Part shown: positions 7,289 to 56,649 of the stretch, one piece after another | Layout: each line of letters starts with the position of its first letter | Numbering within the stretch: position 1 is the first letter of the stretch | The notes under the pieces: generated by a model | Databases searched by the model: none | What the model saw: only the letters and a program-made list of their open reading frames with translations | Told to the model about the DNA's origin: nothing | DNA from: a virus | Taxonomy: Duplodnaviria; Heunggongvirae; Uroviricota; Caudoviricetes | Length of the DNA stretch: 64,000 nt | Direction: 5' to 3' (one strand) | Virus record (IMG/VR): IMGVR_UViG_3300045988_155182 | Made by a program: the position numbers and the translations under genes

Positions 7289-7366
7289 TAACAATCACCT
7301 TTAAAATAAGTAGATGATTACTTATCTTTCTGTGAGAATACTTTCATCTGTTAGCTAGGAGTTGGT

Positions 7367-11501: not shown

Positions 11502-11503
11502 AT

Positions 11504-12045: not shown

Positions 12046-12068
12046 AAGGGGCTTCGGCCCCTTTTTTG
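12046..12068 (+). terminator. Rho-independent terminator after the tRNA cluster
   Basis: aaaggggc ttcg gcccc followed by ttttttg. Confidence 0.6.
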
Positions 12069-12977
12069 TTAATGATTGCCTAGATATGATTTTAGTTCTT
12101 CTTTAATGATTAGTGAGTATTCTAAAATATCACTTAGTAAAAATTTTGCTCTGTTAAAATACCCACCAAAAGAACCTAAAATTTCAGATGGTCTTTCTAA
12201 GAGCATCACAATATCATCTTCTTGCACTTTAGTAATGTAACTTCTAACAGCTCTTTCTCCAATAACTCTTTTCTTACCGTTTATTTCAGATTCATCTAAA
12301 ACCTTATTTATAAATTTTTCTGTATCATTGAATCGTCCACTATTGTGTACTATTGTATGTCTTAGTAGTTCAATTAGCTTGATGTTAAAGCGATAGTTTT
12401 TGCCAATCTTGTTGTTTGTTTCTATCTCTTTGAAGCCAGGTATTTTATTTCTGAAAATTTTAGTTATTTTTTTCGATGGGTTACTTTTTGCTTTTAATAA
12501 TCTGTAATAAACTTCCCTTTTCCCAATTTCATCATCTTCAACCTTACCAAAATCACTTGAGGACCATAAATCATTTCGAACACATACAGTATAGACATAT
12601 ATTGCCTCAATATAGTCTTCCAGTAACTCATAGGCTTCAGTAATAACCCACTGATATTGTTTATTTTTCAAAGTATTACACAATCTTATCTTTTCTTCTA
12701 AATCAATGGCGCTGTTACCTATCTCTAATGTTGAACCTGTATATGGGTTTGAACATAAATGGCGAGCTAACGTTGTGCCACACTTAATCTTAATAGTTTC
12801 ATTAATATTAATAATAGTATCTGGATTCTGTGCATACTCCACTTCTTTAAGAAGACGTTTTATATTTTTCTTTGTTGTATCATTTATCTGATTTAAATAG
12901 TCAAAAAGTAAAGATATTTCTTCTCTAAATTCGTTGTATTTATTTTCAATCAAAGAATCAGACAACTTACCAATCAT
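12069..12977 (-). CDS. Hypothetical AT-rich protein; possible HEPN-type Abi-like protein
   Basis: 302 aa; the only sizeable minus-strand gene in this segment; strongly AT-rich codon usage; Rx4H motif (RHTIVH) near the C-terminal third; AT-rich upstream region at 12978-13150. Confidence 0.4.
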   Translation of the reverse strand: MIGKLSDSLIENKYNEFREEISLLFDYLNQINDTTKKNIKRLLKEVEYAQNPDTIININETIKIKCGTTLARHLCSNPYTGSTLEIGNSAIDLEEKIRLCNTLKNKQYQWVITEAYELLEDYIEAIYVYTVCVRNDLWSSSDFGKVEDDEIGKREVYYRLLKAKSNPSKKITKIFRNKIPGFKEIETNNKIGKNYRFNIKLIELLRHTIVHNSGRFNDTEKFINKVLDESEINGKKRVIGERAVRSYITKVQEDDIVMLLERPSEILGSFGGYFNRAKFLLSDILEYSLIIKEELKSYLGNH

Positions 12978-13150
12978 TAAAACCTCTATAAAATGTACAT
13001 TTCAAGGCAATCCTTACTGTAATCTATTGTCGTAATCACTTCAATTGTTTACTAGTCAATCAATAAGTTACTACATACTTATCAAAAAAATCTGTTTGTA
13101 GTATAGTCTGATATGTTCGAATCAATATTTATAAAGGTATTTGTTAAGTT

Positions 13151-13396
13151 ATGACGATCACTATCTACGGACGAGATAACTGCTCATACTGCAAACGTGC
13201 GGTCGAGCTGGCGAAGCAACTAAAGGGACATGGCTACGGTGATTATGAGTACATCGACATCACCACTGCCGGTATCGACAAGGAAAAACTAAGTGAAATT
13301 GTTGGTAAACCGGTAGAGACTATCCCCCAGGTGCTGATCGATGGCCAGCCGATTGGCGGATACACAGAACTGGCTGCATACGTCAGCACCCTCTGA
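13151..13396 (+). CDS. Glutaredoxin (Grx1/NrdC-like reductant for ribonucleotide reductase)
   Basis: CSYC active site (CxxC), KPVETIPQVLIDGQPIGGYTEL closely resembles E. coli glutaredoxin 1. Confidence 0.85.
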   Translation: MTITIYGRDNCSYCKRAVELAKQLKGHGYGDYEYIDITTAGIDKEKLSEIVGKPVETIPQVLIDGQPIGGYTELAAYVSTL

Positions 13397-13401
13397 TTTT
13401 A

Positions 13402-13427
13402 ACGGCTCACAGGAGCCGTTTTTATTC
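13402..13427 (+). terminator. Rho-independent terminator after the glutaredoxin gene
   Basis: acggctc acag gagccgt followed by ttttatt. Confidence 0.6.
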
Positions 13428-13606
13428 CCACCAAACTCACTCCCATTTCCCTTAAAATTCAAAAAACAACGTCAAAATGATTCCATACCTACTATGTATG
13501 GAATCATTGCTGAAAATGAGTTACTTTTACTCTTGATCCTATAAGAATCTATGCCTAATATACTGTTTACTTATACAGTGCATCGGCGTAACTCGGTGAT
13601 TGTCAT

Positions 13607-14710
13607 ATGAAAAATAGCTTTGACAGAGCACGCGCTGCGGAGAACACCTCAAAAGAGGCGATAGAGTATCTCGAAAGAGCATCTCAAATGCAGGCCGTTA
13701 TGATCTCCCAGGTCAGCAATGACATGAGATTCTCGGACGCATTCATGTTATTCACTCGCTTATCTCTGCTGATAACCAGACGTCGGCCAGAGATCGCTGT
13801 TCATTGTATTTTGATACATGTTTTGCCGCACATTGCCGATGTAAAAGTAAGTGACATTAATAGGTTCATGGTGAACCAACTGGTCAACCCACTAATACTG
13901 GATGGCAAAATTGTTATGGGCCGCCGCGTTTTCTCTCTGATGAAGCAGTTCCTTAGCTGGTGCGCCTTCCAGGGGATGATAGACGTGTCACCGTTGAACG
14001 ATATGTCACTTAACAAAGTTGCCGGTGGCGCAAAGCCCACACCTCGCGAGCGGAAGCTGACCGACGCAGAGGTATGGGTGTTCTGGAATATATGGGACTA
14101 CTTCAATGTGTGTGCTGGTACAAAATGGGCGGCCAGGCTATGTCTTGTATCCGCAAGACGACCTGACGAAGTACTGCGGGCTAAAAAAAGTGAGTTCAAT
14201 CTTAAGCGTGGGGTTTGGAATCAAGGCAAGAGGAACAAATCTGCCCGTGAGCATTCTCTGCCTTTAAGCTCATTAATGCGCACTTGTATTGAAGAGTTGT
14301 TCGAATATGGTAAAGACAGCCAGTGGCTCGTGCCTTCGAATAAAAAAATCGGGAAAGACCTTCCTATGTCTAAAGTGGCAATAGCCCAGGCATTACGTCG
14401 TATTCTGGAACGACCAGAACTGATGGAGCTTGAGCCATTTACACCCCGAGATTTGCGCCGTACTGCGCGTAGTTACTTCCCAGCATTAGGCATAAGCCAG
14501 GAGGTATCACGTAAAATCATGAACCACAGTCTTGAGGGGATAGATCGGGTCTACGACCGGCACGATTATATGGACGAGATGCGAGACGCCTTAGAAAGTT
14601 TCTCGACGTACATCGCATCAATCGTAGAGCAACCGGATTTAGACGAAATTGACCACAAATTTAAGGGAGATCGTCTATCAACAGAGCTTATTCGTGTAAA
14701 TTTTTCATAG
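13607..14710 (+). CDS. Tyrosine recombinase (integrase or Cre-like resolvase family), divergent
   Basis: C-terminal catalytic region with RRPDEV..., TPRDLRRTARSYF (R in place of the usual H of HxxR) and NHSLEGIDRVYDRHDY (box II with the tyrosine); N-terminal third not recognisable. Confidence 0.6.
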   Translation: MKNSFDRARAAENTSKEAIEYLERASQMQAVMISQVSNDMRFSDAFMLFTRLSLLITRRRPEIAVHCILIHVLPHIADVKVSDINRFMVNQLVNPLILDGKIVMGRRVFSLMKQFLSWCAFQGMIDVSPLNDMSLNKVAGGAKPTPRERKLTDAEVWVFWNIWDYFNVCAGTKWAARLCLVSARRPDEVLRAKKSEFNLKRGVWNQGKRNKSAREHSLPLSSLMRTCIEELFEYGKDSQWLVPSNKKIGKDLPMSKVAIAQALRRILERPELMELEPFTPRDLRRTARSYFPALGISQEVSRKIMNHSLEGIDRVYDRHDYMDEMRDALESFSTYIASIVEQPDLDEIDHKFKGDRLSTELIRVNFS

Positions 14711-23640: not shown

Positions 23641-24204
23641 TTATGCGCATTTCGCAATATCTTTGCGGCGTTTAATCAGTTTCTCCGCAATTTGCTCTAT
23701 TTCGTTGAAATCTTTCGAGACGCTGTTTCGAAGCGCCAGATTCCATTTACTCAAAGTTCGGGCATTTTGGACAATTTGATCGCCCTCTTTAAGTCGTCCG
23801 TTATTCATGAGCCATTCAGCCACATCAGCCCAATCCCAGAGAGGAGACTGGCCTTTTATGCGTTGTACAGGGCAAGGGAAGTCGCCGCTTCCGCGCTTAC
23901 CGTCTTTGAGCAACGCCACTGCCTGGCGAGACAGGTCTGTCAGTTCCGCGATATCACTTAAGCCCACAAGAGCCGAGTCGACGGATTCAACAATTGCACC
24001 GATACCGGCTGATTCAATATTGTCGACCGCAGATGCGATAGCTGCATCAAGTGATTGTGCTTCGCGGTCAAATTCTACATAGACGGAGTTTCCATATGCG
24101 CAAATTAGCGCATCGTCACAGCCGTTTTGGTACAGCGCGTCTTCCAGTCCTTCCGTCTCATACGATACGCCTGAGAGCGTCAGAGTGAAGTTATAAAGCG
24201 CCAT
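23641..24204 (-). CDS. Hypothetical protein; possible antitoxin partner of the upstream HicA-like gene
   Basis: 187 aa from MALYNFTLTL...; ATG at 24202-24204 preceded by an AGGAAAA RBS; immediately downstream of 24265..24489 on the same strand. Confidence 0.35.
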   Translation of the reverse strand: MALYNFTLTLSGVSYETEGLEDALYQNGCDDALICAYGNSVYVEFDREAQSLDAAIASAVDNIESAGIGAIVESVDSALVGLSDIAELTDLSRQAVALLKDGKRGSGDFPCPVQRIKGQSPLWDWADVAEWLMNNGRLKEGDQIVQNARTLSKWNLALRNSVSKDFNEIEQIAEKLIKRRKDIAKCA

Positions 24205-24264
24205 AGTTTTCCTTTGAAGATAGTTGGACAGTTTCTGCAAAAGGCGGCTAATGCCGCCTTGAAA

Positions 24265-31895: not shown

Positions 31896-32951
31896 CTATT
31901 TGCGAGTCTTTGCCTTGCGCAACTCTTCGAGAAGCGCCAGTTCTTCTTTACTCAACATGACCATTTTGCCTTCTTTTTCGTCAGGCACAACGTCGATAAT
32001 GTCATCTTGATTCTCATCTGGGAGGCTATATTCCGTCTCATCATTATCGATTTTTGTTGATATTTGTGCCTGGCGTAACTTTGGCCGCCTATAGTGGATG
32101 ACGAAGTAGACCGAGTTTCCGCGCTTAACTTCCGTGTAATCGAGATATCCTATCTCTCGCAGCTGTTCCATAGCCTTTCTTACCGTCGCATTCTGAGTAA
32201 TAGTGCGACTTGTCAGATTAAGTCTGGCGCGTAAACGGGCTAGTGATATTGGTGCCGGATCAGGCGGCAAACTTTCAATAAAAGTATAAAGCGCCTGAGC
32301 GGATTCTTTTCTTGAGAGTTCGTTTATAGCCCGGAGTTGCAGAAGAACCTTTTTGTCGAACTGGTAGAGTTCGAAAATCTTGGGATCTGCTTTCAGTTCG
32401 ACCGTATCGTGCTTGACACTATATTTTGCCGTTTGCACAAGATGCGTTACGTAAAACTCATCAGAGCCTTTGCTACGGAACGAGATGGTATTTGTGGCAA
32501 TACGGCTTAGCGAACTGTCCAGGCGTTTGCGTAACTTCGCTGATGACCTGGCGGTCGGAATGCCACACAGCCTTACAAACTCAACGAACGGCAACGTGAC
32601 AGTATCGCCAACGACCTTGTGTTTGGCAAACGCGTGGATTATTCCCACCCACGTTTTAAAGTCGTTATCCATATCAAGCCGAAGGCCAGAGATCCTTATG
32701 TCTTCGTACCCTTCGGCTTTTGCCAGAGACAGCTGTTTGAGTTCAGCAGAGGCATCCATAGAGACCATTTGCCCCTTTCTTCCTCTGGATGTCGATTTCA
32801 GCGTCGGAACGAAGAGGCCCAGACGCATCAAAGCAACAGGCTGAACAGTGTTATTAGTGTTAGGAACCAACGTAACAACTTCGCCTGTCTTTTTATCTGT
32901 TTCTGAAAATGCTTCAACGATCGCTATGTTTTTATTGCCGTTTTCGCTCAT
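31896..32951 (-). CDS. repA: Iteron-binding plasmid replication initiator (RepA, P1/IncFIB-like architecture)
   Basis: 351 aa gene flanked on both sides by arrays of 21-22 bp iterons, with DnaA boxes and GATC clusters upstream of its 5' end; protein reads as RepA-like ([18 protein letters not shown]) from memory. Confidence 0.75.
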
Positions 32952-32995: not shown

Positions 32996-33115
32996 ATTAC
33001 AGTGGATAGTAGCACTCATCACAGCGGTTATCCTACCGTCTATAGTGGTTTTTCTCCTCTCTATAGTGGTTGCTTTGCTCCCTATAGTGGATTATTCGCT
33101 CTCTATAGTGGATAT
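32996..33115. repeat. Origin iterons: six direct repeats of about 21 bp upstream of repA
   Basis: Units ending in ctatagtggWT spaced 20-22 bp apart (ctctctatagtggttgc, ccctatagtggatta, ctctctatagtggatatc). Confidence 0.8.
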
Positions 33116-33149
33116 CGATCATGTCTGAAGGCAGATGGCACAACGGTTT

Positions 33150-33285
33150 GAGGTGGGCGGGGATCTTATTGGGTCTTTATGGGTCTCTTTGGTTCTCTTT
33201 GTGATCTGAATTACTGGATCGGGCCTGTGGATAAAAATCAGAGGATTTCAAGAACAGGTAACTCTACTCTTCTGTGGATATTTAA
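33150..33285. promoter_or_regulatory. Origin accessory region: GATC sites plus DnaA boxes
   Basis: GATC at 33163, 33204, 33217; perfect DnaA box tgtggataa at 33227-33235 and an 8/9 box at 33274-33282. Confidence 0.65.
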
Positions 33286-33392
33286 GGACATAAGAATCAT
33301 GACTAAGAGTAGAGTTTAAAATATATCTATGTATATCAGTATGTTAATGAAGAATTAAGTCATTAAGTTATCCATAAAAGACAATGTGCTCT

Positions 33393-33610
33393 ACTCTCTA
33401 CAGTGGATATATACAGCTCTCCAGAGTGGTTGTTTTACTCTTCATAGCGGTTATTCAGCTCTCTACAGAGGTTTCTTTGCTCTCCATAGTGGATGGCAAC
33501 ACCCTTTCAGACCAGTAACCGCAACGGCTAGAGGCGATCGGGGATCTCTTTGGATCTTCTATTTGATCTTACTTGGGATCTCTTATTTGGATCTATCCAG
33601 TGGATAACTG
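33393..33610. repeat. Second origin-like module: five iterons, five phased GATC sites and a DnaA-box-like site
   Basis: Iterons at 33393-33496 (ctctctacagtggatat, ctctccatagtggatgg); GATC at 33543, 33553, 33565, 33577, 33590 at 10-13 bp spacing; agtggataa at 33598-33606. Confidence 0.65.
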
Positions 33611-34593: not shown

Positions 34594-35679
34594 ATGACTT
34601 TGCCATACGGCGTCATTTCTGACTGCCACTACCACAAATGGGATGCGTTCTCCACGACGAACGCTGAGGGGCTTAACTCCAGACTTGAAATACAGTTGGA
34701 AGCAACGAAAGAAGCAGCCATCGCCATGAAGAAGGCCGGTTGTAAGTACATGTTGGTTGCCGGTGATACATTTCACGTCCGAGGAACTGTGTCCCCTTCT
34801 GTTTTGCATTACGTAACTGAAACGTACAAGTGGATTATCAACGAGCTTGATCTGACAGTAGTAATGCTGGCCGGTAATCACGATCTTGAAACCAACGATT
34901 CAGTATATAGCGCCAACGCAGCAGCATCGCTGAGTTCTATCGGCGTGGTAATCGTATGTGGCAAGCGCCCACACTCAATAAAAATTGGCGATGTGACTGT
35001 CCACCTGATTAGCTGGCGTAACAATCATGCGGAGCTTATCAGCGATCTGAAAGCATTACGTAAGAGCGTAGAAGGTGATAATCATGACGTTGTTATCCAT
35101 ACATCCATTAACAAAGCCATTCCAACAATGCCTGACGTCGGTATCGATGCGCAGGAGTTAAAGGATATCGGCTTTCGTCTCGTGCTTAGTGGGCATTACC
35201 ACAACCACAAAGAGGTCATTCCTGGAGTTATCAGTGTCGGTGCACTGACTCATCAAAATTGGGGAGATGTTGGATCTCTGGCTGGCTACATGATCGTAAA
35301 CCCGGACGGCAGTTTCAGTCACTACGAAACCAGTGCGCCTAAATTCATTAACCTGGAAGATGATGTTGCTGATGACCAAATTCGCGGCAACTACGTGCGT
35401 TTCCGCGCCGTAATTGAGAACGATGAAGAAGGCATTAAGTACCAGAACATCCTCAAAACAATGGGTGCAAAAGGTGTCGTGTGCAACTTCATCCGTAAGT
35501 CATCAATGATGGAAGGTACAGCCAGCACAACTGAAACCAGCAAAATCGATAGCCTGGGAGAGTCGGTATCTGCTTATTGCAAGATTGTCCACGATACTGA
35601 CGGCGGATTTGATCTGAGCAAATTGGATATTTTGTGTCAGGAAATCCTCACCGAAGCGGAGAGTTCGGAGGCTGTGTGA
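34594..35679 (+). CDS. SbcD/Mre11/T4 gp47-like nuclease (calcineurin-like phosphoesterase)
   Basis: Phosphoesterase motifs DCHYH, GDTFHV, GNHDLE, SGHYHNH; conserved aaaaacacATG start. Confidence 0.75.
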   Translation: MTLPYGVISDCHYHKWDAFSTTNAEGLNSRLEIQLEATKEAAIAMKKAGCKYMLVAGDTFHVRGTVSPSVLHYVTETYKWIINELDLTVVMLAGNHDLETNDSVYSANAAASLSSIGVVIVCGKRPHSIKIGDVTVHLISWRNNHAELISDLKALRKSVEGDNHDVVIHTSINKAIPTMPDVGIDAQELKDIGFRLVLSGHYHNHKEVIPGVISVGALTHQNWGDVGSLAGYMIVNPDGSFSHYETSAPKFINLEDDVADDQIRGNYVRFRAVIENDEEGIKYQNILKTMGAKGVVCNFIRKSSMMEGTASTTETSKIDSLGESVSAYCKIVHDTDGGFDLSKLDILCQEILTEAESSEAV

Positions 35680-35908: not shown

Positions 35909-37825
35909 ATGAAGTTTTTAAAGCTCCAGGTTGAGAATTTTATGGCTATCGCCAGCGCGGAGGTCGAGTTAGATCAGCGTGGTTTAGTGCTTATTCAGGG
36001 TGTTAATAGTGATGATAGTTCCGCATCAAGTAATGGCTCTGGAAAGTCAACTCTAATGAATAGCCTGATGTGGTGTCTTTATGGCGAAACAGCTCATGGT
36101 GTGAAGGGTGACGATGTGTTGTCTACCGACCATGAAAAGAACTGTCGTGTTGCAGTAACCATCGAGGATGAAGGCAAGAGATACGCAATCATTCGTCACC
36201 GTAAACACAAAGAGTTCAAAAATCGTCTTATCGTTCGTGGTGAAGATGGCGATATGACGAAAGGCAAAGATGCGCTGACGCAGGAGTTCGTCGAGCGTCT
36301 GATCGGTGCATCTAAAGAGGTTTTCATGGCTTCCATCTATGCGAGCCAAGAAGCTATGCCAGATTTACCTGGAATGTCCGACAAAAACCTCAAAACCATC
36401 GTAGAAGAAGCCGCTGGCGTTGACAGACTGACACGCGCCTACGCTATTGCTCGTGAGCGAGCTAATGCAGCTGCCGCACGTATGGATGTGGTTAAAACCA
36501 AATTGGAGTCGACAATCTCGACCATTGAGGCAACACAGTCAGAAATTGAGTCAGCGAAAGCCTCCTCTGAATCATGGGAGCAAGAGCGTTCTAAACGTTA
36601 TGACGATGCCCTGGCTGGGCTGGCCAGTGCCGAAGTTGAGTTAACGGAAGTTGAACTTGAGATCCGCACTCTTCCCGAACAGATACGTGATACCGAGAAG
36701 GCAATCGAAAGTGAGCGCAAAAAGTTAGCCTCAAAAGAAGAACATGACGCCAAGTTGCTCAAAGTTCGTGGTGCGATAACTGATATTCGGGCAAGCATCA
36801 AAGCTACAGAAAATAGTCAGGCTGATGCAATGAACCGCGCGCGTAATTTTAAGACCAAAGCAGAAGAGGTTGGTACTAAAGTGGGATCACCATGCCCTAC
36901 TTGTGGCAAAGCCTACTGCGAAGAAGATCTATCAACGGTGAAGGAGAGTTTCATTGAACAAGCACGTCAGGAAATTGGTCAGGCGAAGACACTTGCAGAG
37001 GCAATGGCTAAACACAAAACGAATCTTGAGAAAGCGTTAAGCATTGAGTCTGCCCTTGTTAAAACGACACCTGATGTAACGGCTATCATTGCCCGGATTG
37101 AAGAGCTTACGAAACAACTCTCATCTTTGCGTCATCGTGAGAAGGAGGTTGTTGCTATTGAGTCTCTTGTGACTCGTGCTCGTACTGAGGTCGATCGTAT
37201 ATCAAAAGAGATTAATCCGTTTATTGCTCTTATCGCCAGACACGAAGATAACTTGGTATCCAGTAAGTCTACCTTCAAGTCCTTAAAAGATGAGTTGAAG
37301 GCTATTCAGGAACAAACGTTGCTATTGGAAAAAGCTCGTCAGGTCTACTCTCCTGCCGGGGTGCGTTCTCATATTTTGACGTCTGTTACGCCTTTCCTGA
37401 ATACACGCACTGCCGAGTATCTCAATACGTTGTCTGACGGGAATATTACTGCTGAGTGGTCGACGATGGATGTCACTAAAAAAGGTGAGTATCGCGACAA
37501 ATTCAACATTAGTGTGCAGAAGAAAGGTTCAAGTAAGTCGTTCCAGACCCTCTCTGGTGGTGAGAAGCGGAAGGTTCGCATTGCGTGTTCTTTGGCATTG
37601 CAGGATCTGGTTAGTAACCGGGCTAGTAAAAACATCGATTTGTTTATCGGCGACGAAATTGACGATGCACTCGATACAGCCGGTCTTGAACGCCTCATGG
37701 GTATTCTGGAGTCCAAAGCTCGCGAGCGAGGTACTGTGCTGATTATCTCCCATAAAGAGATGAAGTCATGGTTCAGGGAAACTATTACGCTGGAAGTTAA
37801 AGAGGGGCGCAGCTATGTCGTTTAA
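35909..37825 (+). CDS. SbcC/Rad50/T4 gp46-like ATPase
   Basis: N-terminal Walker A NGSGKSTLMNSL, central coiled coil with CxxC zinc hook (CPTCGKAYC), C-terminal ABC signature LSGGEKRK and Walker B LFIGDEIDDALD. Confidence 0.8.
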   Translation: MKFLKLQVENFMAIASAEVELDQRGLVLIQGVNSDDSSASSNGSGKSTLMNSLMWCLYGETAHGVKGDDVLSTDHEKNCRVAVTIEDEGKRYAIIRHRKHKEFKNRLIVRGEDGDMTKGKDALTQEFVERLIGASKEVFMASIYASQEAMPDLPGMSDKNLKTIVEEAAGVDRLTRAYAIARERANAAAARMDVVKTKLESTISTIEATQSEIESAKASSESWEQERSKRYDDALAGLASAEVELTEVELEIRTLPEQIRDTEKAIESERKKLASKEEHDAKLLKVRGAITDIRASIKATENSQADAMNRARNFKTKAEEVGTKVGSPCPTCGKAYCEEDLSTVKESFIEQARQEIGQAKTLAEAMAKHKTNLEKALSIESALVKTTPDVTAIIARIEELTKQLSSLRHREKEVVAIESLVTRARTEVDRISKEINPFIALIARHEDNLVSSKSTFKSLKDELKAIQEQTLLLEKARQVYSPAGVRSHILTSVTPFLNTRTAEYLNTLSDGNITAEWSTMDVTKKGEYRDKFNISVQKKGSSKSFQTLSGGEKRKVRIACSLALQDLVSNRASKNIDLFIGDEIDDALDTAGLERLMGILESKARERGTVLIISHKEMKSWFRETITLEVKEGRSYVV

Positions 37826-47735: not shown

Positions 47736-48545
47736 ATGAGTTCGGTTGAAAATGTAATGACAAATGATGATCTGGACGAGCTGACAGCCATGTTGCAATC
47801 ACTTGATGAACCAGTAAAAAAAGCTGCACAGGTTGAAAATACTGATGATATTGACGATCTGCTGCTCGGCCTAGATGCTGGCGTAGCCATGAGTTCTGAT
47901 GATGTTGCCGAAGAACTGTTCAATGAAGAAAAAGCAGGTGATTTCAGCTCTGCTTTAAATGAGTTGGAGTTAGCGCATGAGCCTATAAACGTAATTAACG
48001 CTGAAAGTGTTGAAGCTGCCGAAAACGAGCCAGAACAATTGGGATTTATTGAGGTTGAAGAGTGTGTTGAGGTTAATGATGAATTAAAAGTTCAACAGTC
48101 AAATGATAGCAATACAAATAAAAAAGCTCGTACTGCAAGAGGTCCTCGTTTTACTTTAAGTGATAAAGATGATTCGTTTTTCAATAAAGCGGGCTTAGAA
48201 AAAGATATTTTCTTAGACGCTTACGATAACGCGCCTGTCAAAGCAAAGGATAAGATATTAAACCTTCTTAATTGGTTTAGCGGAGGTCCAGATATTAGTG
48301 TTTACACGGTAATTTCCATGAGACACCTTCTCACAGAAAAGAAGGCTACAAGTAATAGTATTAAGATTGCTTTAATGAGCAATCCAGAAAAACCGTATCC
48401 GCTTAACACTGCGTCAACTCAGGCTGGGCAAATGATGGCTGTATTTCCAGCGACAGGAATTGCCGTTAGAGACGGTGGAAATCTAACATTGAACGAAGAA
48501 TCACCGATCGTTAAGAAGTTTGTCGCGGAGTACACTATTGGATGA
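47736..48545 (+). CDS. Hypothetical acidic protein
   Basis: 269 aa, D/E-rich N-terminal half. Confidence 0.35.
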   Translation: MSSVENVMTNDDLDELTAMLQSLDEPVKKAAQVENTDDIDDLLLGLDAGVAMSSDDVAEELFNEEKAGDFSSALNELELAHEPINVINAESVEAAENEPEQLGFIEVEECVEVNDELKVQQSNDSNTNKKARTARGPRFTLSDKDDSFFNKAGLEKDIFLDAYDNAPVKAKDKILNLLNWFSGGPDISVYTVISMRHLLTEKKATSNSIKIALMSNPEKPYPLNTASTQAGQMMAVFPATGIAVRDGGNLTLNEESPIVKKFVAEYTIG

Positions 48546-48728
48546 CGTTCCCCTACTGAAAATAAAGCCCATAGAGAGCTTTATAGTGCTGGGCAAGCCA
48601 ATCACATACCCAGCACCACAAAAACGCGCCAGAGAGCTTCTCGTTTGCATTTCTGGCGTGTTTTATTTGATTGCCAGACATAAAATCAAATGCAAAAATA
48701 GGTATTTACTTACCTATCGAGAAAGAAG

Positions 48729-49322
48729 ATGATTGCAGCCGAAAAAATCAAACAGCGAAAGCGCGACAACTCTCTTCGTGACCTCTGGAGAACACCTGAC
48801 TGGCTGTTTTCTGCCATTCAACGTTATCTTGGGGTGACATTTGATGTTGACGTTGCCTGCAACAAGGACAATGCAAAGCTGCCTAATTTCATAGGCGTTG
48901 AGCGTGATGCTTTGAAATCTGAATGGGGACAGCCAGGTACAATTGCCTTCCTCAATCCCCCCTACTCCAAAATCTCCCCCTGGATTGATGCGGCTATACG
49001 TGAGCAGGCTCGCGGAGTTACAACAGTGATGCTAATTCCTCAATCCCTAGATACAAAGTGGTATGAGCGTGCAACAGAGTGTGCGAATGAGACGATTATT
49101 CTGTCTGGTGGCCGCGTAGCGTTTGTCGAGCCTGACGTCAATCTGGGTCAGGTAGAAGTAAACATCAACCCAGGTGGCAGTATGCTCGTTGTTTTTCGAG
49201 GATTCTGTCAGGACGCTGGGCACTCTATAAGCAAGATCCCTTTGGACGTCATGAAAAGTCTGGGAGGGTATGATCCTGCGAATGTGATCAGGAAAAAAAG
49301 ACCATCAAAGAAGGCTGCTTAG
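48729..49322 (+). CDS. Phage-type DNA N6-adenine methyltransferase (Dam_N6 family)
   Basis: WRTPDWLF, FDVDVACN and catalytic NPPYS motifs. Confidence 0.7.
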   Translation: MIAAEKIKQRKRDNSLRDLWRTPDWLFSAIQRYLGVTFDVDVACNKDNAKLPNFIGVERDALKSEWGQPGTIAFLNPPYSKISPWIDAAIREQARGVTTVMLIPQSLDTKWYERATECANETIILSGGRVAFVEPDVNLGQVEVNINPGGSMLVVFRGFCQDAGHSISKIPLDVMKSLGGYDPANVIRKKRPSKKAA

Positions 49323-49345
49323 TTTGTTCTGGCGTCTGTAATTAG

Positions 49346-49408
49346 CCTGCTTCTGTATATATAAATAACTACATATTAATTATTAATATACGGAAGCAGG
49401 CTGTTTTG
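49346..49408 (+). repeat. Conserved long hairpin element, copy 2 (terminator-like, after the methyltransferase)
   Basis: cctgcttctgtatatataaata ... tatacggaagcagg followed by ctgtttt; arms match 3730..3791. Confidence 0.6.
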
Positions 49409-49507
49409 TATCAGAGACTCCAGACCTGAACATCACTACAGAATCCACTAGAACCCCTTCCCAGACGCTTTAAAATCGATTTTATGAATCACTTTAAGGA
49501 AACTAAC

Positions 49508-49738
49508 ATGTCATACCCGACTAATGTCGTTGCGCTCGTAGAGAGCGATTTTCTGGCCCAGGCCCGTGAAATGATGAAAGATCGCGAGCAGGCTTTCAAC
49601 TTGTACGAATGGGCAATTAAGTGCTTGCATCTTGGGGAGCATCGCGAACTTGTTGAACAGCTTTTAGGTGAGTTGATCAACGAGGTGTTTGCCTTGAATG
49701 TTCAACTACATGGTCGAGAAAATAATCAATCGAAATGA
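49508..49738 (+). CDS. Hypothetical small protein
   Basis: ATG at 49508 with AAGGA RBS 7 nt upstream. Confidence 0.3.
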   Translation: MSYPTNVVALVESDFLAQAREMMKDREQAFNLYEWAIKCLHLGEHRELVEQLLGELINEVFALNVQLHGRENNQSK

Positions 49739-49744
49739 TAGATA

Positions 49745-50290
49745 AGTACAAACTATTCATAAAGTGAATTGTAAGTGCTAAGATCTGATAGTTTCCAGTC
49801 GTAGACTGGAGACTCGACCTGATGGGTGGGGGTAAGCGTCACTGGCGTCAGGTTTAAAAAAGCTCACTACCAGCGTAGAACCGGTGCCGTTTAGGTGTCG
49901 GGGAAGGGGGAACCAAAGTGAGCGGAGACAAGGGTCACTTTATGATTGTCGAGTCTGGGGTGTTTCGAGAGGTTGAATCCAGTACTCCCCTTCATAAAGT
50001 GTGGGAAGATCTCGGTTCTGGGGTGCTGTCATCCATAACTTCCCAAGTCTAAGCTGGCAGTAGACTTAGGCCATAACTTTTTCAGGTTATGAAACGACCA
50101 GGTTGGTGAGGGATTTTTATACTCACCTCCCTGGGAGAGTATTACCTGAAAAGACAACCTCTCACTTCGTTCGAGGTGAACTTCACTCACTTCGTTCGTT
50201 CAGTTCAGGTTTATAAAAACCTGTTCTGGGAAGTAATTTGTTTATTTTAATAATTATTAACACGCACGCGTGTGCGCACGCGCGAGGAAA
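49745..50290. other. ORF-free, GC-rich structured region with an alternating purine-pyrimidine tract (candidate ncRNA or origin)
   Basis: About 540 bp with no ORF in a gene-dense element; multiple hairpins; cacgcacgcgtgtgcgcacgcgcg at ~50261-50284; short direct repeats ctcacttcgttcg. Confidence 0.3.
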
Positions 50291-50322
50291 AAATCGGCGC
50301 GGCGCTTGATTCAGGAGTTTAT

Positions 50323-50913
50323 ATGACGACGAAGACACCAGCCCGATCGCAAGAAAAAACTCGCAAAAAAGCCAAAAACAAAAATTCTCCCCGCACCAAT
50401 TCCACAACGCCTGTCGTAGAGTTCAATCCCCAGCTTAAAACCGTGAAAATCTTCAGTGATGGCTCTTGCCTTAAAAATCCGGGTGGCCCGGGCGGTTACG
50501 GTATAGTTCTCCAGTATCGTGGTGAGGAACGCGAGTTCTCAGATGGTTTTCATAGCACCACCAATAACCGCATGGAGATGATGGGGGCACTTATCGGGCT
50601 GGAGCGTTTGAAATATCCATGCAACGTTATTTTGCACTCTGATAGCCAGTATCTGAAAAACGGCATGACACAGTGGATGAAATGGTGGAAACGCAATGGA
50701 TGGGTGACTTCTGACAAAAAACCGGTAAAGAATGTTGATCTGTGGAAGCGTCTGGATGAGGCCGCAAGTCGACATAATGTTCGCTGGAAGTGGGTTAAAG
50801 GCCACGCCGGGCATCGTGAAAATGAAATATGTGATCGACTCGCGAAGATCGCAGCTTTTTCCGCAGCAGATATGCCTCACAAGAAAGATATTGGTTTTGT
50901 TTATAACAAATAG
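50323..50913 (+). CDS. rnhA: Ribonuclease HI
   Basis: [18 protein letters not shown]...[10 protein letters not shown]...[21 protein letters not shown]...[13 protein letters not shown]...KGHAGH closely matches E. coli RNase HI; start at the ATG with AGGAG RBS (track start 50272 is GTG). Confidence 0.85.
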
Positions 50914-51061
50914 TAAGTAAGTGTTTACCTATCATTTTAAATCATGTATCTTATCGGCGTCAGGATGACAATGTGTCGGTAAGACACAGTTCCAGGATGG
51001 AACGAGAAAGGCGGCTGGCAATCGCCAGCCGCAACTCTTTCTGACACTGGATGGAGTCCAC

Positions 51062-51556
51062 ATGGCACGTCAAACCTATTTCACTTCTGCAACTAAACGT
51101 CCTCGTTCTTTACGTCAAATTTTGGCCGAATTGTTTAGCGGTCGTGTTATGTCACGTCTTGATGAACTAGAGACTACCGTTCGGTTGCTGAATGAACGTT
51201 TAGATAATCAAGCGTCAGTTGTTGCGAACGTGGGGGCGATTGTTGCCTCTGGTTCTTCACGCGAAGCGAAAAGTACACGGCCTTTAGTGAAGGAGAAAAA
51301 CAACAAGGACAGTTCGAATGGAAAATTTTCAAAGAAAGAGGCTGAAACCAATGGCCTACGTTCTCATTATAGTTTCACTGGCGACGGTAGCCGTTCCAGC
51401 CGGCCAGAGCCTTTTGATGCCGGGTTCATCCATCACCACACCTCCGTCGACGACAATTACCACCACTACAGTAGAGCGTCCTGTCACTCTGGATGGGATG
51501 ACGGTGGATGCGATACCTCAAGTTCATCCAGTTACTCAGGATCATGCTGTGACTAA
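51062..51556 (+). CDS. Hypothetical protein with S/C-rich C-terminus
   Basis: 164 aa ORF. Confidence 0.3.
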   Translation: MARQTYFTSATKRPRSLRQILAELFSGRVMSRLDELETTVRLLNERLDNQASVVANVGAIVASGSSREAKSTRPLVKEKNNKDSSNGKFSKKEAETNGLRSHYSFTGDGSRSSRPEPFDAGFIHHHTSVDDNYHHYSRASCHSGWDDGGCDTSSSSSYSGSCCD

Positions 51557-51565
51557 GGCGGTTGT

Positions 51566-51754
51566 ATGAACTGGTTTTCAAATCACTTTGGAAAAATTTG
51601 GCTGGCAATTCTTGCCCTCATGGCCGCCGGTTGGGTATCGAACATTATAAAACTTGTTTGCTCTGGCGATCTCCAGTTTCAGGCTGGTATGACCTTGGCT
51701 CGTGTTGTTGGGATTTTTGTTTTTCCAGTTGGTTCGGTACTTGGTTATTTCTGA
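51566..51754 (+). CDS. Small membrane protein
   Basis: 62 aa, hydrophobic. Confidence 0.3.
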   Translation: MNWFSNHFGKIWLAILALMAAGWVSNIIKLVCSGDLQFQAGMTLARVVGIFVFPVGSVLGYF

Positions 51755-51847
51755 CGGCTGTTAGTGCATATGCATTGACCATCTCTGCGTAAGCAATTTA
51801 TGTAATTAGAAAACAACTTGTTTTGACAAATAATAAAAGGAAAACAC

Positions 51848-52273
51848 ATGTTAGGTTTCTTCAAAAAGAAAACTCGTAAAGCTGTTATCGAAGTCAAAAA
51901 AATGGAGAACCGTGATGCGGTTGAGGCCACCGTGTGGGGCGCGTACATGATCTCCTATGCCGACGGCACATGTGACGCAAAAGAAATTGCCATTCTTGAG
52001 AAGACAATTGCAGCTCTGCCTGCGTTTTCTCCGTTTGCTGGTGAAATTGCCCAAATGAGCGCCAATATCCGTGCTCGTTACGAAGCGTCCCCTCGTTCTG
52101 CTAATGCACAGGCTATTCGTGAGCTGTCTGATATTGCGGGTACTCCAGAGGCGGTCGATGTTCTGTGTCTGTGCCTTGATATTGCCGATCAGGACGGCAT
52201 TGGTGAACAAGAAGAGCAGGCACTTAAAAAGATCGCCCAGGCGCTTCAGTTGTCACTGGATGCTTATCTCTAA
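51848..52273 (+). CDS. TerB-like domain protein
   Basis: YADGTCDAKEIAILEKTIAALP and later EQEEQALKKIAQALQL resemble the tellurite-resistance TerB fold. Confidence 0.45.
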   Translation: MLGFFKKKTRKAVIEVKKMENRDAVEATVWGAYMISYADGTCDAKEIAILEKTIAALPAFSPFAGEIAQMSANIRARYEASPRSANAQAIRELSDIAGTPEAVDVLCLCLDIADQDGIGEQEEQALKKIAQALQLSLDAYL

Positions 52274-52431
52274 TGCTTGAGAGATTCCGGCTTGTGATCG
52301 TCATTGCTCTTCTGGTGATGGCGGTGTTGGTGGATTTTACGGGAAAGATGATGTCTGTCATTTCTGATGGCGTCCTCATTGGTCTGGCGATCTACTTCGC
52401 TTATCCGCTAGTCCGTAAAGCAACGTGTTAA
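52273..52431 (+). CDS. Small membrane protein (52 aa, below the ORF-track cutoff)
   Basis: ATG overlaps the upstream stop (TAATG); MLERFRLVIVIALLVMAVLV...; terminator follows. Confidence 0.25.
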   Translation: MLERFRLVIVIALLVMAVLVDFTGKMMSVISDGVLIGLAIYFAYPLVRKATC

Positions 52432-52433
52432 TG

Positions 52434-52464
52434 ACAAGGGCCATTTGGCCCTTGTGTTTCGTTG
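52434..52464 (+). terminator. Hairpin terminator
   Basis: acaagggcc attt ggcccttgt followed by gtttcgtt. Confidence 0.5.
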
Positions 52465-52570
52465 ACCGAAATAGAGAGTTTGCACCTTTACGTTTAGCTT
52501 GCTCCCCTTTTATGCCACATCACAATAAAGCCAATAAGAAAACAACTTGTTTAAGCATTAGGAAAAACAC

Positions 52571-53140
52571 ATGTGCAAGAAATGCAAAGCAATAGCTGAT
52601 GAACAAAACGCCTTATTCGAAGAAATGGATGCTAATGAACTGGTCAAAATGTTAGCCATTCTTCGAGGAATAGAAGACGTTTCCATATTTGAGAGAGTGG
52701 TTACAGCACTTAATTTTGAGTCCACCTTTGAAGAGCCAACTCAGGTTGTAGCTTTAGCACATCATTTCGGTGTTCATTATCTTGCTGAAAAAGAGCGCGC
52801 TGATAAGTTGCAGGCGACTTTGGATATGGTGAGCGAGACTCAACGAACTGATGACACTAACAAGAGTGAGGCGATTATTGCCAGCAAAGATCGTGAAATT
52901 GCTGGGCTTAAATCCTCTCTAACGATGTTGATGTCTGCGTTCAATCTTATGTCTTCTCAGGCGGGTTATAAAATGCCATCACTAAACAGCGATGATCCGA
53001 TGGCCGTTCGTCAGCTTTTGGGAGCAATGGCCGACCAACTCGACGACACAAAGAGTCGGCTTGAAGACATGATGCGTGAGTTAAGCCATCGACATAACCT
53101 CGCAACACAGCCACACAAAGCCTTTCAAAGCTCTAATTGA
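52571..53140 (+). CDS. Hypothetical protein
   Basis: 189 aa; AAACAACTTGTTTAA motif and conserved start context upstream. Confidence 0.35.
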   Translation: MCKKCKAIADEQNALFEEMDANELVKMLAILRGIEDVSIFERVVTALNFESTFEEPTQVVALAHHFGVHYLAEKERADKLQATLDMVSETQRTDDTNKSEAIIASKDREIAGLKSSLTMLMSAFNLMSSQAGYKMPSLNSDDPMAVRQLLGAMADQLDDTKSRLEDMMRELSHRHNLATQPHKAFQSSN

Positions 53141-53195
53141 TCTGATATGGCCGCATGATCGGCCATATTGTGTTGATAAAAAACAAGGATGAAAA

Positions 53196-53477
53196 ATGGC
53201 ATACGGTACAGGGATTTACAACAATAAAGGAATTAACGTTACTGGCTTCCTTACTCCTATTTTTTTTCTTGATCGATTTACTGCGTCATCAGGCTCTAAG
53301 ACGTACTCCAATCCGCCACCGGGTAAATCGCTACATGCCGTGTGGTCATTGATGCCTCTTAACAACGACAACTACATTAATTTACCTGTTCCAACAGTTA
53401 CTATTAATGGAAATACGGTTAGTTGGTCAAATTTATATACGGGGCTTGGTTCTTACATATACACATACTGGGGATAA
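53196..53477 (+). CDS. Hypothetical protein (AT-rich cargo)
   Basis: 93 aa, N/T/G/Y-rich. Confidence 0.3.
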   Translation: MAYGTGIYNNKGINVTGFLTPIFFLDRFTASSGSKTYSNPPPGKSLHAVWSLMPLNNDNYINLPVPTVTINGNTVSWSNLYTGLGSYIYTYWG

Positions 53478-53479
53478 TT

Positions 53480-54094
53480 ATGTTCGGGATGTCAATTACT
53501 CAATCAGATGGAAGTTTGTGGATGAGTCCAGAATTTACTCCGCAAAATCTGATTAATAAAGGGACAATGTCTACATCTAAAGGTTCTGTTTTTCAAACAT
53601 CAATCCCATCAAACAAATCATGCTTTTTCTTCATAAAAAGCAGTAATAAGGCGAACATGATGTTTATTCATGAGCATAGTAACGGATACAATGCTCTCAG
53701 ATTGCATCAGGTAAATGGTAGCCCCGGAACAATAACAGTTTATGCTTTTTCTGATATGGTGTTACCACATTCTGGCTATGGCATTGCCATGTATAACAGC
53801 GCAGGCGCAATGGTGTATCACGGTGAGATGATGCCCCTTGATGCGAAACTTATCACTATTTCTGACCCTCAATTTACAATAGATATGGGGTATCCATGTG
53901 CGGTAATGCCTGCTATGGTTGGGGTATATAACTATAGACGAACCGATTACGACAGACCTGTCTATGTAACAATGACAGGTGCAACTGGAAACCAAGTATA
54001 TAACGGTCAATGGTATTCCGGTAATGTCACATGGGATATTAAGAAGATTTATACAAACAAAATTCTGGTGATAAATACCTCCAAGTATGATTAG
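53480..54094 (+). CDS. Hypothetical protein (AT-rich cargo)
   Basis: ATG at 53480 just after the upstream stop; 204 aa. Confidence 0.35.
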   Translation: MFGMSITQSDGSLWMSPEFTPQNLINKGTMSTSKGSVFQTSIPSNKSCFFFIKSSNKANMMFIHEHSNGYNALRLHQVNGSPGTITVYAFSDMVLPHSGYGIAMYNSAGAMVYHGEMMPLDAKLITISDPQFTIDMGYPCAVMPAMVGVYNYRRTDYDRPVYVTMTGATGNQVYNGQWYSGNVTWDIKKIYTNKILVINTSKYD

Positions 54095-54197
54095 CCAATG
54101 CCTTTATTTGAAGGATTGCCTGTTTATTTCTATTTAGTACCTTTTCATTTTTGAAATAATTGCACCATTAAACAAATCACTTCTTAATGGTGCAATT

Positions 54198-55883
54198 ATG
54201 AATACAGCCCTTTCCATCATCGACGATGCCAACTCAAACACTGCTATCGACTATCGGAAGGAAATGAACGTCATCCACGAAATTGTGGCCGAGTGCGAGA
54301 AAGAGATCGCCTTCATGTATCAGGTTCACGACTTCGTTTATGGCGACGAACGCCACAACATGATTAATCGCCTGCTGAGACTAAACCATCGACCAGATGA
54401 AGATCGCTCGCGTTTAAATCGAGGTTGGTTGGATAAAGTCGATCTGGAATGGGTGAAACAGAATATTTGGGCCGAGTACTGGAGGAAGGTCACGGACATG
54501 ACTAACGTTTTGCTGATCATGCCAGCTTCCCGTCGAGATGAGTGGCGCGAGCAGTTTATAGAGGGCAAACAGGAAGTCATCAAAACTGACAGAACCGGCT
54601 ACCAGATGAAGGTTAAAGAGTTCGTTGGTGTACCGGAGTTCAAAGCAGAAACGGTCATACCCACGATGCTTAATTTGCTGAATGACAGGCACAAATATCT
54701 CTCTGAGCGCGTGTATGGCTTGTTTAAGGCGCTGAGTCCTGCGCACAAGACAAATAAGACAAACGGTTTCAGCGAGCGTCTGATAATCGCTGACTGCATT
54801 TCTGATTTCTGGCGGGACAGCGTTAGCGTGAACTATCGCAAAGAGGACTACATCGACGATCTGCGTGTCTTGCTTCATTTCTTCGCGCACAAAGAATTTA
54901 TTACCATCAACCGCACTGCTGAGGTGCTATCAGCTGCGTATCGAGCAAACGACTGCCAGACCGGTGACTGGATGAACGTCGATGGAAATCTGATGCGCGT
55001 GAAGATGTTCAAGAACGGCAACGTTCACTTTGAAATACATCCTGACGTGGCCTGGAAGTTGAATGAGGTGCTGGCTTACAGTATGCCTGCTGCAATCCCC
55101 GCGCCATGCCGAACTGCGCCAAAAACACGGGCACCAAAGCAGTTCGGGTTAATCCAGAAGACGATCTCCGTGCCGGTTCGCACTGCGCTTCGTGACGGGC
55201 GATTGAGCAAAGACAAAGGCGTATGGTACTTCTCTGATTCAGCTCTCCAGAAGTCGCAGGTGGAAGAGCTTGAGCGCACACTGAGCTTCATTGGCGGCGT
55301 GCAGGAGAAAAAGCACTGGCAGTTCCCGTATGACATCGGCCATACGCTAAATACGATTGTGGCTACCGGTTTAATACCGGATACAAAATCACACCAGTTC
55401 TACCCTACCCCACGCTTGATTGCTGAGTACGTTGCCAGAGCCACTGAATTGAAGCCTGGTGAGAAGCTGCTGGAGCCTCAAGCCGGACGTGGGGATCTTC
55501 TGGCCTATATTAACGCCGATCTGGAAGATGTTACCTGCATAGAAATCGCACCTCTCTTCGCTGATATCCTGCGTGGAAAAGGGTATACGAACACGATTTG
55601 CTGCGACTTCATAAAGTGGTCTGAGGACAACGCAGGTTATCAGTTCGACAAAATCGTTATGAACCCGCCGTACTCGCTTGGTCGTCATAGAGAGCACACG
55701 CTGGCTGCGCTGGGGCATCTGAAAGTCGGCGGGCGTCTTGTAGCAGTATTGCCGGGCACTGCGCCAATACTGGACTGGATGACGATGGATAATTACGTTT
55801 ATGCCAGAGGGAAGTCGTTTACCAACGAGTTTGAAGACACAGGGATCACAGTCAGCGTATACGTTTTCAAACGCGTTAAATGA
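54198..55883 (+). CDS. Putative SAM-dependent N6-adenine DNA methyltransferase with a large N-terminal domain
   Basis: C-terminal motif I-like LEPQAGRGDL and catalytic NPPYS; 561 aa. Confidence 0.55.
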   Translation: MNTALSIIDDANSNTAIDYRKEMNVIHEIVAECEKEIAFMYQVHDFVYGDERHNMINRLLRLNHRPDEDRSRLNRGWLDKVDLEWVKQNIWAEYWRKVTDMTNVLLIMPASRRDEWREQFIEGKQEVIKTDRTGYQMKVKEFVGVPEFKAETVIPTMLNLLNDRHKYLSERVYGLFKALSPAHKTNKTNGFSERLIIADCISDFWRDSVSVNYRKEDYIDDLRVLLHFFAHKEFITINRTAEVLSAAYRANDCQTGDWMNVDGNLMRVKMFKNGNVHFEIHPDVAWKLNEVLAYSMPAAIPAPCRTAPKTRAPKQFGLIQKTISVPVRTALRDGRLSKDKGVWYFSDSALQKSQVEELERTLSFIGGVQEKKHWQFPYDIGHTLNTIVATGLIPDTKSHQFYPTPRLIAEYVARATELKPGEKLLEPQAGRGDLLAYINADLEDVTCIEIAPLFADILRGKGYTNTICCDFIKWSEDNAGYQFDKIVMNPPYSLGRHREHTLAALGHLKVGGRLVAVLPGTAPILDWMTMDNYVYARGKSFTNEFEDTGITVSVYVFKRVK

Positions 55884-55944
55884 TAGGTAAATACTTACTT
55901 AATTTGTGTAAGAATGTAATAACTAAACGATAAGAGAAAAACAC

Positions 55945-56649
55945 ATGAACAACCTCCAGTTAGAGCATTTTAACGTCACAGGCCATTCTGATTTTCCTTT
56001 CAAGTTTACATTGAAAGGTTATGCAGAGGATGCGGTAGGCCAGATCATTATTGATAAAGGCATCGTTAAGTTTGAGGGGGATTTTGATGAATCCGCGAAA
56101 ACATTCATAGACTTCGTTGCCAAACGTTGGAGCGAGCAATGGAAAGACCTGGAAAAGCGCGCTAGTGAGTTTGATCGGTTCATGGATGCAATGAATACAG
56201 CAAAAGAGGCTCTTGCTGCCGGGACTCCGTTAGATCTGGAGTCACTTTTCAACGGCGAAGTGGCCTCTGCGATGTTCGCCACCATGTTCGCGGGTGAGTT
56301 CGTCCGCAGCGGTGCCAAAAACTACCTTGAGCTGGATTACAACGTCCCTGCAATTGGCGATTTCGTCGTTACCATCCAACGCAAAGAAGGTAAGACGCCA
56401 GGTGAACGCGTCGCAGAGCTTGAGGCCGTTGTGGATCAGCGTAACGGAGAGTGTGACCGTTTGATCAACGAGCTTCATGCACTTCGGGAAGAAAGAATAT
56501 GCGCGGGTAGCAATACACGTAATGCAGCGGATATCTACTTCCAGTTAGTTGAGGAATGCCAGATTCCACCAGGCGGCTCTCTTGTCGATTACGTCAGACA
56601 TTTAATGACGGAAGTTAACTCCAGCCATAAAGATGGTGAGGTGCGCTGA
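55945..56649 (+). CDS. Hypothetical protein
   Basis: 234 aa; conserved aaaaacacATG start. Confidence 0.35.
   Translation: MNNLQLEHFNVTGHSDFPFKFTLKGYAEDAVGQIIIDKGIVKFEGDFDESAKTFIDFVAKRWSEQWKDLEKRASEFDRFMDAMNTAKEALAAGTPLDLESLFNGEVASAMFATMFAGEFVRSGAKNYLELDYNVPAIGDFVVTIQRKEGKTPGERVAELEAVVDQRNGECDRLINELHALREERICAGSNTRNAADIYFQLVEECQIPPGGSLVDYVRHLMTEVNSSHKDGEVR

Follow-up and report, generated by a model that had tools for sequence, protein, structure and literature searches.

Introduction

Orphan DNA methyltransferases, which lack a restriction partner, are common on temperate phages and plasmids. For the small Dam enzymes of phages the target GATC has been reported: it is methylated by M.EcoT1Dam according to published work, by M.EcoVT2Dam (PMC6602927) and by M.Btr190III, which is 35% identical to T1 Dam and shows off-target activity (PMC4996451). 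M.EcoGIX, a beta-class enzyme with the motif DPPY, and M.BceJIII are single-strand-specific methyltransferases from the leading regions of conjugative plasmids (PMC7736820). Orphan methyltransferases are enriched in anti-defence leading regions and form a prominent class there (PMC11541004). In this study two orphan methyltransferase genes were investigated in a DNA stretch of 64,000 nucleotides (the window) of the Caudoviricetes record IMGVR_UViG_3300045988_155182, which, as judged by its similarity to named members, belongs to the SSU5/pHCM2 family of phage-plasmids. The first gene encodes a Dam-type enzyme of 197 amino acids. The second encodes a protein of 561 amino acids, in which a methyltransferase domain follows a region with the domain DUF4942 (Table 1).

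Both proteins are probably DNA adenine methyltransferases that are expressed with replication and early genes and mark the element's own DNA. The main benefit would be that this DNA is protected from host restriction, with regulation of the origin or of other processes as a possible extra. Both genes and the element are already known; hundreds of SSU5-family records contain the annotated genes. Since they stand in public databases with these annotations, the finding is not new as an observation, and because orphan methyltransferases are so common on temperate phages and plasmids it is routine as it stands. The sole point worth bench work is the DUF4942 family. Besides plasmids, with IncHI2 resistance plasmids among them, its carriers include prophages and the islands of enteric pathogens, and no structural relative was found for two-thirds of the protein. 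The motif of the DUF4942 enzyme would help to read the methylomes of clinical Enterobacteriaceae and to understand how such elements cross the restriction barrier.

Identity of the element and of the two enzymes

The region from 48000 to 56500 (8.5 kb), which contains both genes, showed 99.0% identity to Escherichia phage CMS-2020a, 98.4% to phage Cyrano and 83% to Salmonella phage SSU5. Plasmid matches had identities of 99.0-99.6%, many of them to non-mobilizable plasmids of E. coli and E. albertii with about 107-126 kb, and 133 plasmid records spanned at least 80% of this query. The gene order was the same as in the curated annotation of Cyrano and in SSU5. Because of the DNA identity of 83-99.6% and the synteny with named members (Cyrano, CMS-2020a, SSU5 and the E. 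coli plasmids), the window is assigned by sequence comparison to a phage-plasmid of the SSU5/pHCM2 family. In the public annotation of SSU5, SSU5_088 and SSU5_095 are both named 'DNA methyltransferase'. The RefSeq names are 'phage N-6-adenine-methyltransferase' for the Dam-type enzyme and 'DUF4942 domain-containing protein' for the larger one.

Both open reading frames (ORFs) were located on the plus strand, exactly where the preliminary description of this DNA had placed them. It had assigned the first to the Dam_N6 type, and this assignment was confirmed by two models above their curated cut-offs, Pfam PF05869 'Dam' (E 2.5e-38; 131.8 bits, cut-off 28.1) and NCBIfam TIGR01712 'phage N-6-adenine-methyltransferase' (113.9 bits, cut-off 97.05). 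PHROG 111 (E 1.6e-65) and the orphan methyltransferase models of PADLOC also matched. T1 Dam was aligned over 185 residues with 25% identity (E 1e-18). Homologues with about 39% identity were found in Shiga toxin (Stx)-converting and HK140-type lambdoid phages, and homologues with about 28-33% in T1-like phages. We take the Stx-phage homologues to be of the VT2 Dam type.

Like T1 Dam, VT2-Sa Dam (M.EcoVT2Dam) and HP1 Dam, the enzyme is a phage-borne member of PF05869/TIGR01712 in the size range of about 170-240 amino acids, carries NPPY and has neither a separate recognition domain nor a restriction partner. It differs from T1 Dam and Stx-phage Dam in the low identity of 25% and about 39%, respectively, and GATC specificity is assigned to it by homology. 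GATC is most likely its target, because the tested relatives T1 Dam, VT2 Dam and M.Btr190III methylate this sequence. Kinship with the non-specific enzymes of the Hia5 type was considered and rejected. The motif of Hia5 is DPPY, and some 90 of its residues (~80-170) form a separate recognition region, in contrast to the small NPPY enzyme described here.

The second protein had been described as an NPPY methyltransferase of 561 amino acids with a large N-terminal domain, which agrees with our results. Its motifs follow the gamma-class order within a Rossmann fold: motif X (QFYPTP, residues 400-405), motif I (LEPQAGRG, residues 425-432, window 55470-55493) and motif IV (NPPY, residues 489-492, window 55662-55673). 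All three were intact in the alignment. With Pfam only DUF4942 (PF13708) scored above the cut-off for the whole protein. PHROG 6263 'DNA methyltransferase' matched with E 2e-299. The PADLOC models mad2 (1e-15, residues 394-523 only) and MTase_II (2e-10) were also hit, as was, weakly, REase_MTase_IIG (E 0.0012), which was limited to the catalytic domain. Among the PDB sequences M.TaqI was the best match of the family profile to the catalytic domain (E 3.5e-4), and in the Foldseek search with the structure model TaqI, HsdM and CamA were matched to this domain at E ~1e-7 to 1e-6. The AlphaFold2 model of the protein had a mean predicted local distance difference test score (pLDDT) of 82.4. According to this model no target-recognition domain follows the catalytic domain: only 69 residues remain between NPPY and the C-terminus, and they are predicted to make up the final strands of the Rossmann fold. 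A ratio of nonsynonymous to synonymous substitution rates (dN/dS) of 0.089 in comparison with the SSU5 orthologue indicates that the gene is under strong purifying selection.

The protein can thus be aligned with M.TaqI and other gamma-class N6-adenine DNA methyltransferases (N6_Mtase/Eco57I type) over motif X, motif I and NPPY, and it shares their fold. Unlike these enzymes, it stays below the Pfam gathering score, has no C-terminal target-recognition domain and carries an N-terminal module of 390 residues without counterpart in the PDB. We infer that its substrate is DNA. The homologue name 'YdiA' had raised the suspicion that the protein is a SAY-specific single-strand enzyme like M.EcoGIX. 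This was ruled out, as M.EcoGIX is a beta-class enzyme with DPPY, whereas the gamma-type order, NPPY and a DUF4942 region place the 561-amino-acid protein in another family. In common with M.EcoGIX and M.BceJIII it is an orphan on a mobile element, an early protection of entering DNA may be proposed for it, and a stand-alone relative of its catalytic module is located in the leading region of IncF plasmids.

Table 1 Position of the methyltransferase genes, their parts and related loci (positions without a record are those of the window)
Feature	Record	Position	Strand	Basis or content
Phage Dam-type (T1/VT2/HP1-type) N6-adenine DNA methyltransferase, orphan, 197 amino acids		48729-49322	+	PF05869, TIGR01712, PHROG 111, PADLOC orphan-MTase models
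Catalytic motif IV NPPY of the Dam-type enzyme, residues 76-79		48954-48965	+	translation; aligned with NPPY of T1 Dam
DUF4942-methyltransferase fusion protein, orphan, 561 amino acids		54198-55883	+	PF13708, PHROG 6263, AlphaFold2 model
N-terminal region, residues 1-392, including the DUF4942 match at residues 140-295 (54615-55082)		54198-55373	+	PF13708; separate model
C-terminal amino-methyltransferase domain with a minimal Rossmann fold (residues ~397-561; motifs in the order X, I, IV)		55386-55880	+	motifs, M.TaqI profile match, Foldseek, PADLOC
repA		31896-32951	-	correspondence with Cyrano annotation
Duplicated origin-like module upstream of repA		33015-33607		sequence reading; repeat families D1-D5
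Prophage loci with stacked methyltransferases	L091; L092	4948-12320; 8001-10936		PF01555 (and PF00145 in one)
DUF4942-methyltransferase gene 2 kb from a Dam-family gene, IncHI2 plasmid	NZ_CP047116.1 (L089)	3560-7844		
453-amino-acid DUF3560 gene, then 187-amino-acid module, then ssb, IncF plasmid	NZ_CP070113.1 (L088)	5506-7477		near psiB, an antirestriction gene and a second 'DNA methylase'

The DUF4942 region

PF13708 matched the N-terminal region with 74 bits (gathering score 25). As a fold search with the whole protein was dominated by Rossmann-fold matches, residues 1-392 were modelled and searched separately. The model was confident (pLDDT 83.3). Long helices are predicted at the N-terminus, after which come parts of mixed alpha/beta structure and a basic linker that is conserved (residues ~296-324); a small alpha/beta subdomain then leads up to the catalytic domain. 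No significant fold match to this separate model was found in the PDB (best E 0.55, TM score below 0.15), no PDB sequence-profile match to the N-terminal region was obtained, and the matches in BFVD were uncharacterised viral proteins only. The region had been called uncharacterised on first reading, and with neither a function in Pfam nor a match in the PDB by sequence or fold it remains so. In the literature DUF4942 was mentioned in an annotation table or gene list, and no functional study of it was found. Likewise, a target sequence for the DUF4942-methyltransferase family was not found there, nor anything relevant on the methyltransferases of SSU5 or the methylome of pHCM2.

A large number of residues was invariant among homologues with an identity of just 30-35%, namely S180, H183, T185, N186, G190, F191, D221, L222 and R223, and further W258, D262, G263, G274, H277, H281, P282 and N289. 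In a recognition domain with drifting specificity such conservation would be unusual. As read from the alignment it fits one conserved target or binding mode, or a hitherto unrecognised catalytic site. As the catalytic domain itself lacks a recognition domain, DNA binding or the choice of the target is presumably the task of the N-terminal module. A more far-reaching interpretation is that the DUF4942-methyltransferases form a distinct class of mobile-element DNA methyltransferases with a novel-fold N-terminal module and an unusual mode of action, e.g. methylation that is of low specificity or is coupled to replication or entry, for which M.EcoGIX is an example from a different family, or a second catalytic activity. 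It would explain the conservation of the N-terminal region across distant hosts and the frequent stacking with other orphan methyltransferases; we consider it doubtful at present.

Distribution and neighbourhood of the DUF4942 family

The cluster with the exact sequence of the 561-amino-acid protein comprised 1384 members under the name 'DUF4942 domain-containing protein'. Orthologues were present in phage-plasmids of Salmonella, Klebsiella, Citrobacter, Cronobacter, Enterobacter, Xenorhabdus, Providencia and Morganella. More than 2000 plasmid records, IncHI2 among them, contained matches over at least 80% of its length, and such matches were also present in phages of Aeromonas and Pseudomonas. 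Full-length relatives with 30-38% identity were detected in beta- and gammaproteobacterial chromosomes. Residues 1-395 as query against 1.8 billion cluster representatives gave 612 matches. The build of two domains is the norm in this family, because nearly all of the 150 matches listed of these 612 had a length of 500-580 amino acids.

At 73 loci from other species no neighbouring gene family was common to more than seven loci. A YqaJ exonuclease, a DUF932-like protein, an integrase and regulators of the CI/Cro type were recurrent, i.e. genes of prophages and islands; their functions were read from the sequences and not scanned. The DUF4942 family is confined to mobile elements. In two lambdoid prophages, one of an Enterobacterales isolate and one of Variovorax, the gene is located just downstream of the repressor and replication genes and beside an orphan methyltransferase of family PF01555; one of them also carries PF00145. 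Together with the IncHI2 plasmid in Table 1, these loci suggest stacked methylation arsenals on mobile elements.

The stand-alone protein of the IncF leading region that is related to the catalytic module has 187 amino acids and the motif MNPPFS (31% identity, E 8e-16). A split version of the fusion, in which DUF3560 replaces the DUF4942 region in IncF plasmids, was rejected, as hhalign gave a probability of 0.4%. The catalytic module furthermore matched PHROGs of phage proteins with 1200-3900 residues. Serratia phage Parlo has this module in a 'DarB-like antirestriction protein', and it was also present in other large phage proteins, of which some are annotated as virion structural proteins. 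With the DarB-like and giant proteins the enzyme thus has the methyltransferase module in common. It differs from them in its length of 561 amino acids and in having no helicase or other large domains; phage P1 was absent among the matches at E 1e-5.

Search for a restriction partner

When the immediate neighbours of both genes were searched with Pfam, NCBIfam, PHROGs, PADLOC and the PDB sequences, no family of nucleases or restriction enzymes was matched. In PADLOC, 65 ORFs of the window matched 31 families; the 25 that were listed did not include a restriction enzyme, and the strong matches lay elsewhere. The complete genome of Cyrano and a 43.5-kb stretch of the RefSeq plasmid contained no restriction enzyme annotation. 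A cognate endonuclease was thus recognised neither nearby, nor elsewhere in the element, nor as a conserved neighbour at the 73 loci, and by these sequence searches the two genes would not belong to classical Type II restriction-modification systems. This agrees with the preliminary description, which had seen no adjacent endonuclease-like gene, had preferred self-protection or epigenetic control to a classical restriction-modification system and had named a cognate enzyme elsewhere in the element as the finding that would speak against this. The absence holds for recognisable partners, because several neighbouring genes have no assigned function.

A hidden restriction or defence system, with the nuclease encoded by a neighbouring hypothetical gene or formed by the DUF4942 region itself in the manner of Type IIG enzymes, is very improbable. 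The neighbours at 47736-48545, 52571-53140 and 55945-56649 have no known function, and other defence genes are present in the element, e.g. at 2510-3706 with its match to PD-T7-5. In the DUF4942 region the invariant residues H277, H281 and N289 (and Asp) lie in an element of two strands and a helix, which is a loose reminder of His-Me fingers; a nuclease is not claimed from this. No neighbour is conserved with the DUF4942 enzyme over the 73 loci, however, and residues 1-392 matched no nuclease family or fold. A PD-(D/E)XK pattern was not visible in our reading of the N-terminal alignment. Moreover, a fused enzyme of Type IIG was rejected because no recognition domain follows the catalytic domain. 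The ORF upstream of the Dam gene was compared with the 'endonuclease' that precedes the Dam homologue of Stx phages, and no similarity was found.

Membership in a MADS defence system was rejected as well. The matches to mad3 and mad8 were all located on an SbcC-like ATPase (35909-37825), and mad2 covered only the part of the 561-amino-acid protein given above. The mad3 and mad8 matches are generic, because the same ATPase was also hit by LmuB, PbeC and DndD. Automated defence annotation could therefore mislabel this plus-strand gene. A metallophosphoesterase is encoded upstream of it (34594-35679), and the pair looks like SbcCD.

Function of the methyltransferases and the origin-like module

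If both enzymes mark the DNA of the element, the Dam-type enzyme would keep this DNA fully Dam-methylated when replication outpaces the host Dam, or in hosts with low Dam activity. GATC methylation would shield it from enzymes that cut unmethylated GATC. The 561-amino-acid enzyme would add a second, different methylation pattern as guard against host restriction.

Several observations weigh against this interpretation. With 25-39% identity to tested GATC enzymes the specificity of the Dam-type enzyme could differ, and a dam+ E. coli host would make its action redundant. Across the window GATC was neither avoided nor enriched, with 273 sites observed and 245 (mononucleotide) or 331 (Markov) expected. 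Among the neighbours several genes have no assigned function, so an unrecognised nuclease is possible. The role of the N-terminal region is a guess, and the polar residues that are invariant there in large number (H, D, N, S, T) might just as well belong to an unrecognised catalytic site. The catalytic domain of the larger protein scored below every Pfam gathering score for DNA methylases (N6_Mtase 18.5 and 20.4 required, Eco57I 12.1 and 25.3 required). Methyltransferases for RNA, protein and lipids matched it by structure about equally well, with PmtA, TrmN and rRNA/tRNA methyltransferases among the top Foldseek matches, and weak matches to the Erm, KsgA and MTS-type RNA enzyme models were obtained.

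These last results would also be expected if the 561-amino-acid protein methylated RNA, protein or a small molecule, e.g. a host factor, which would be bound by the DUF4942 region. We regard this as quite unlikely. The best matches by PDB sequence and profile were M.TaqI and another DNA adenine methylase, and the PADLOC models MTase_II, for DNA methyltransferases, and mad2 were hit at 1e-10 to 1e-15. The same module is part of the DarB-like antirestriction protein and of other large phage proteins, and in prophages the gene is clustered with bona fide DNA methyltransferases.

A GATC-rich origin, to which the preliminary description had tentatively linked the enzymes, is real. It is located upstream of repA, 15 kb upstream of the Dam-type gene and outside the region of the two methyltransferases. 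Two arrays of iterons with a spacing of 21 bp were found (about 33015-33115 and 33396-33515), which belong to a module repeated after about 375 bp. Each array leads into a related module of about 95 bp with a run of GATC or short repeats, ending in the DnaA-box-like sequence TGTGGATAA or AGTGGATAA. Within the distal copy six GATC sites are packed into 58 bp (33536-33593); in 300 shuffles six sites never occurred within 70 bp. In the repA-proximal copy most of the corresponding places are occupied by GGTCT, and only four scattered GATC sites are present. The origin oriR of phage P1 is a Dam-dependent iteron origin. Upstream of repA, both have iterons, a run of short repeats that contain GATC, and a DnaA-box-like site. 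Unlike oriR, the module described here is duplicated, and its repA-proximal copy has lost most GATC sites.

This layout raises the question whether the enzymes are mainly epigenetic regulators of the element, acting on replication initiation at the GATC-rich origin, on packaging or on the lysis-lysogeny decision. The IncFIB type, assigned in PLSDB to the replicon, and the position of both genes among replication and early genes are in line with such a role. On the other hand, GATC in E. coli is methylated by the host Dam anyway, so that the origin would not need an enzyme encoded by the element. Furthermore, the larger enzyme has homologues in very different elements with different origins, namely lambdoid prophages, IncHI2 plasmids and genomic islands, and a general rather than a replicon-specific role fits this better. 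Regulation as the main function is therefore unlikely in our opinion, although it overlaps with the protection of the element's DNA by methylation, and the two are not mutually exclusive. As part of such protection the Dam-type enzyme may at the same time hold the six-GATC cluster of the P1-like iteron origin methylated.

Genetic context and other features of the element

Both genes are embedded in a long co-directional block on the plus strand with genes for replication and nucleotide metabolism and genes of early type. It encodes ribonucleotide reductase, MazG, ThyX, polynucleotide kinase, DHFR and a 3'-5' exonuclease, which are followed by the Dam-type methyltransferase, RNase H, TciA/TciB-like genes, two membrane proteins, the DUF4942 methyltransferase and early genes similar to Ead, Ea22 and Eaa. 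A scan for promoters and terminators from 47.5 to 57.2 kb gave nothing usable, and promoter-like sites were rarer than in shuffled sequences.

The DUF4942 gene is directly preceded by two ORFs (53196-54094, plus strand) that resemble the pair of 'outer membrane protein' and 'membrane associated protein' of JenP1/JenP2 and T1. From about 53250 to 54050 the window had 78-79% DNA identity to the JenP phages, and PHROG 425 was matched. The T1 pair adjoins the superinfection exclusion gene cor, which by analogy hints at an exclusion function.

Candidates for defence genes were detected at the beginning of the window, just after parA/parE-like genes. An ORF of 398 amino acids (2510-3706, plus strand) matched the PADLOC models PD-T7-5 (E 2e-139) and PD-T7-1 (1.9e-42). 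It is preceded by an ORF of 252 amino acids (1709-2467, plus strand) with a match to the candidate defence family PDC-S31 (4e-38). The site looks like a variable slot for defence cargo, because Cyrano holds only a hypothetical gene of 741 bp at the corresponding place. A HicB-like antitoxin is encoded on the minus strand (23641-24240; PADLOC PDC-M06B, 1.6e-32), and in Cyrano the HicA toxin is annotated alongside.

A stretch of low GC content (36% GC, 12001-14000) contains a minus-strand ORF of 302 amino acids (12069-12977), for which no PADLOC match was obtained. This stretch lies next to integrase and repressor genes and is bordered by three plus-strand tRNA genes (11427-11890) for Asn-GTT, Thr-TGT and Ser-TGA, as annotated in Cyrano.

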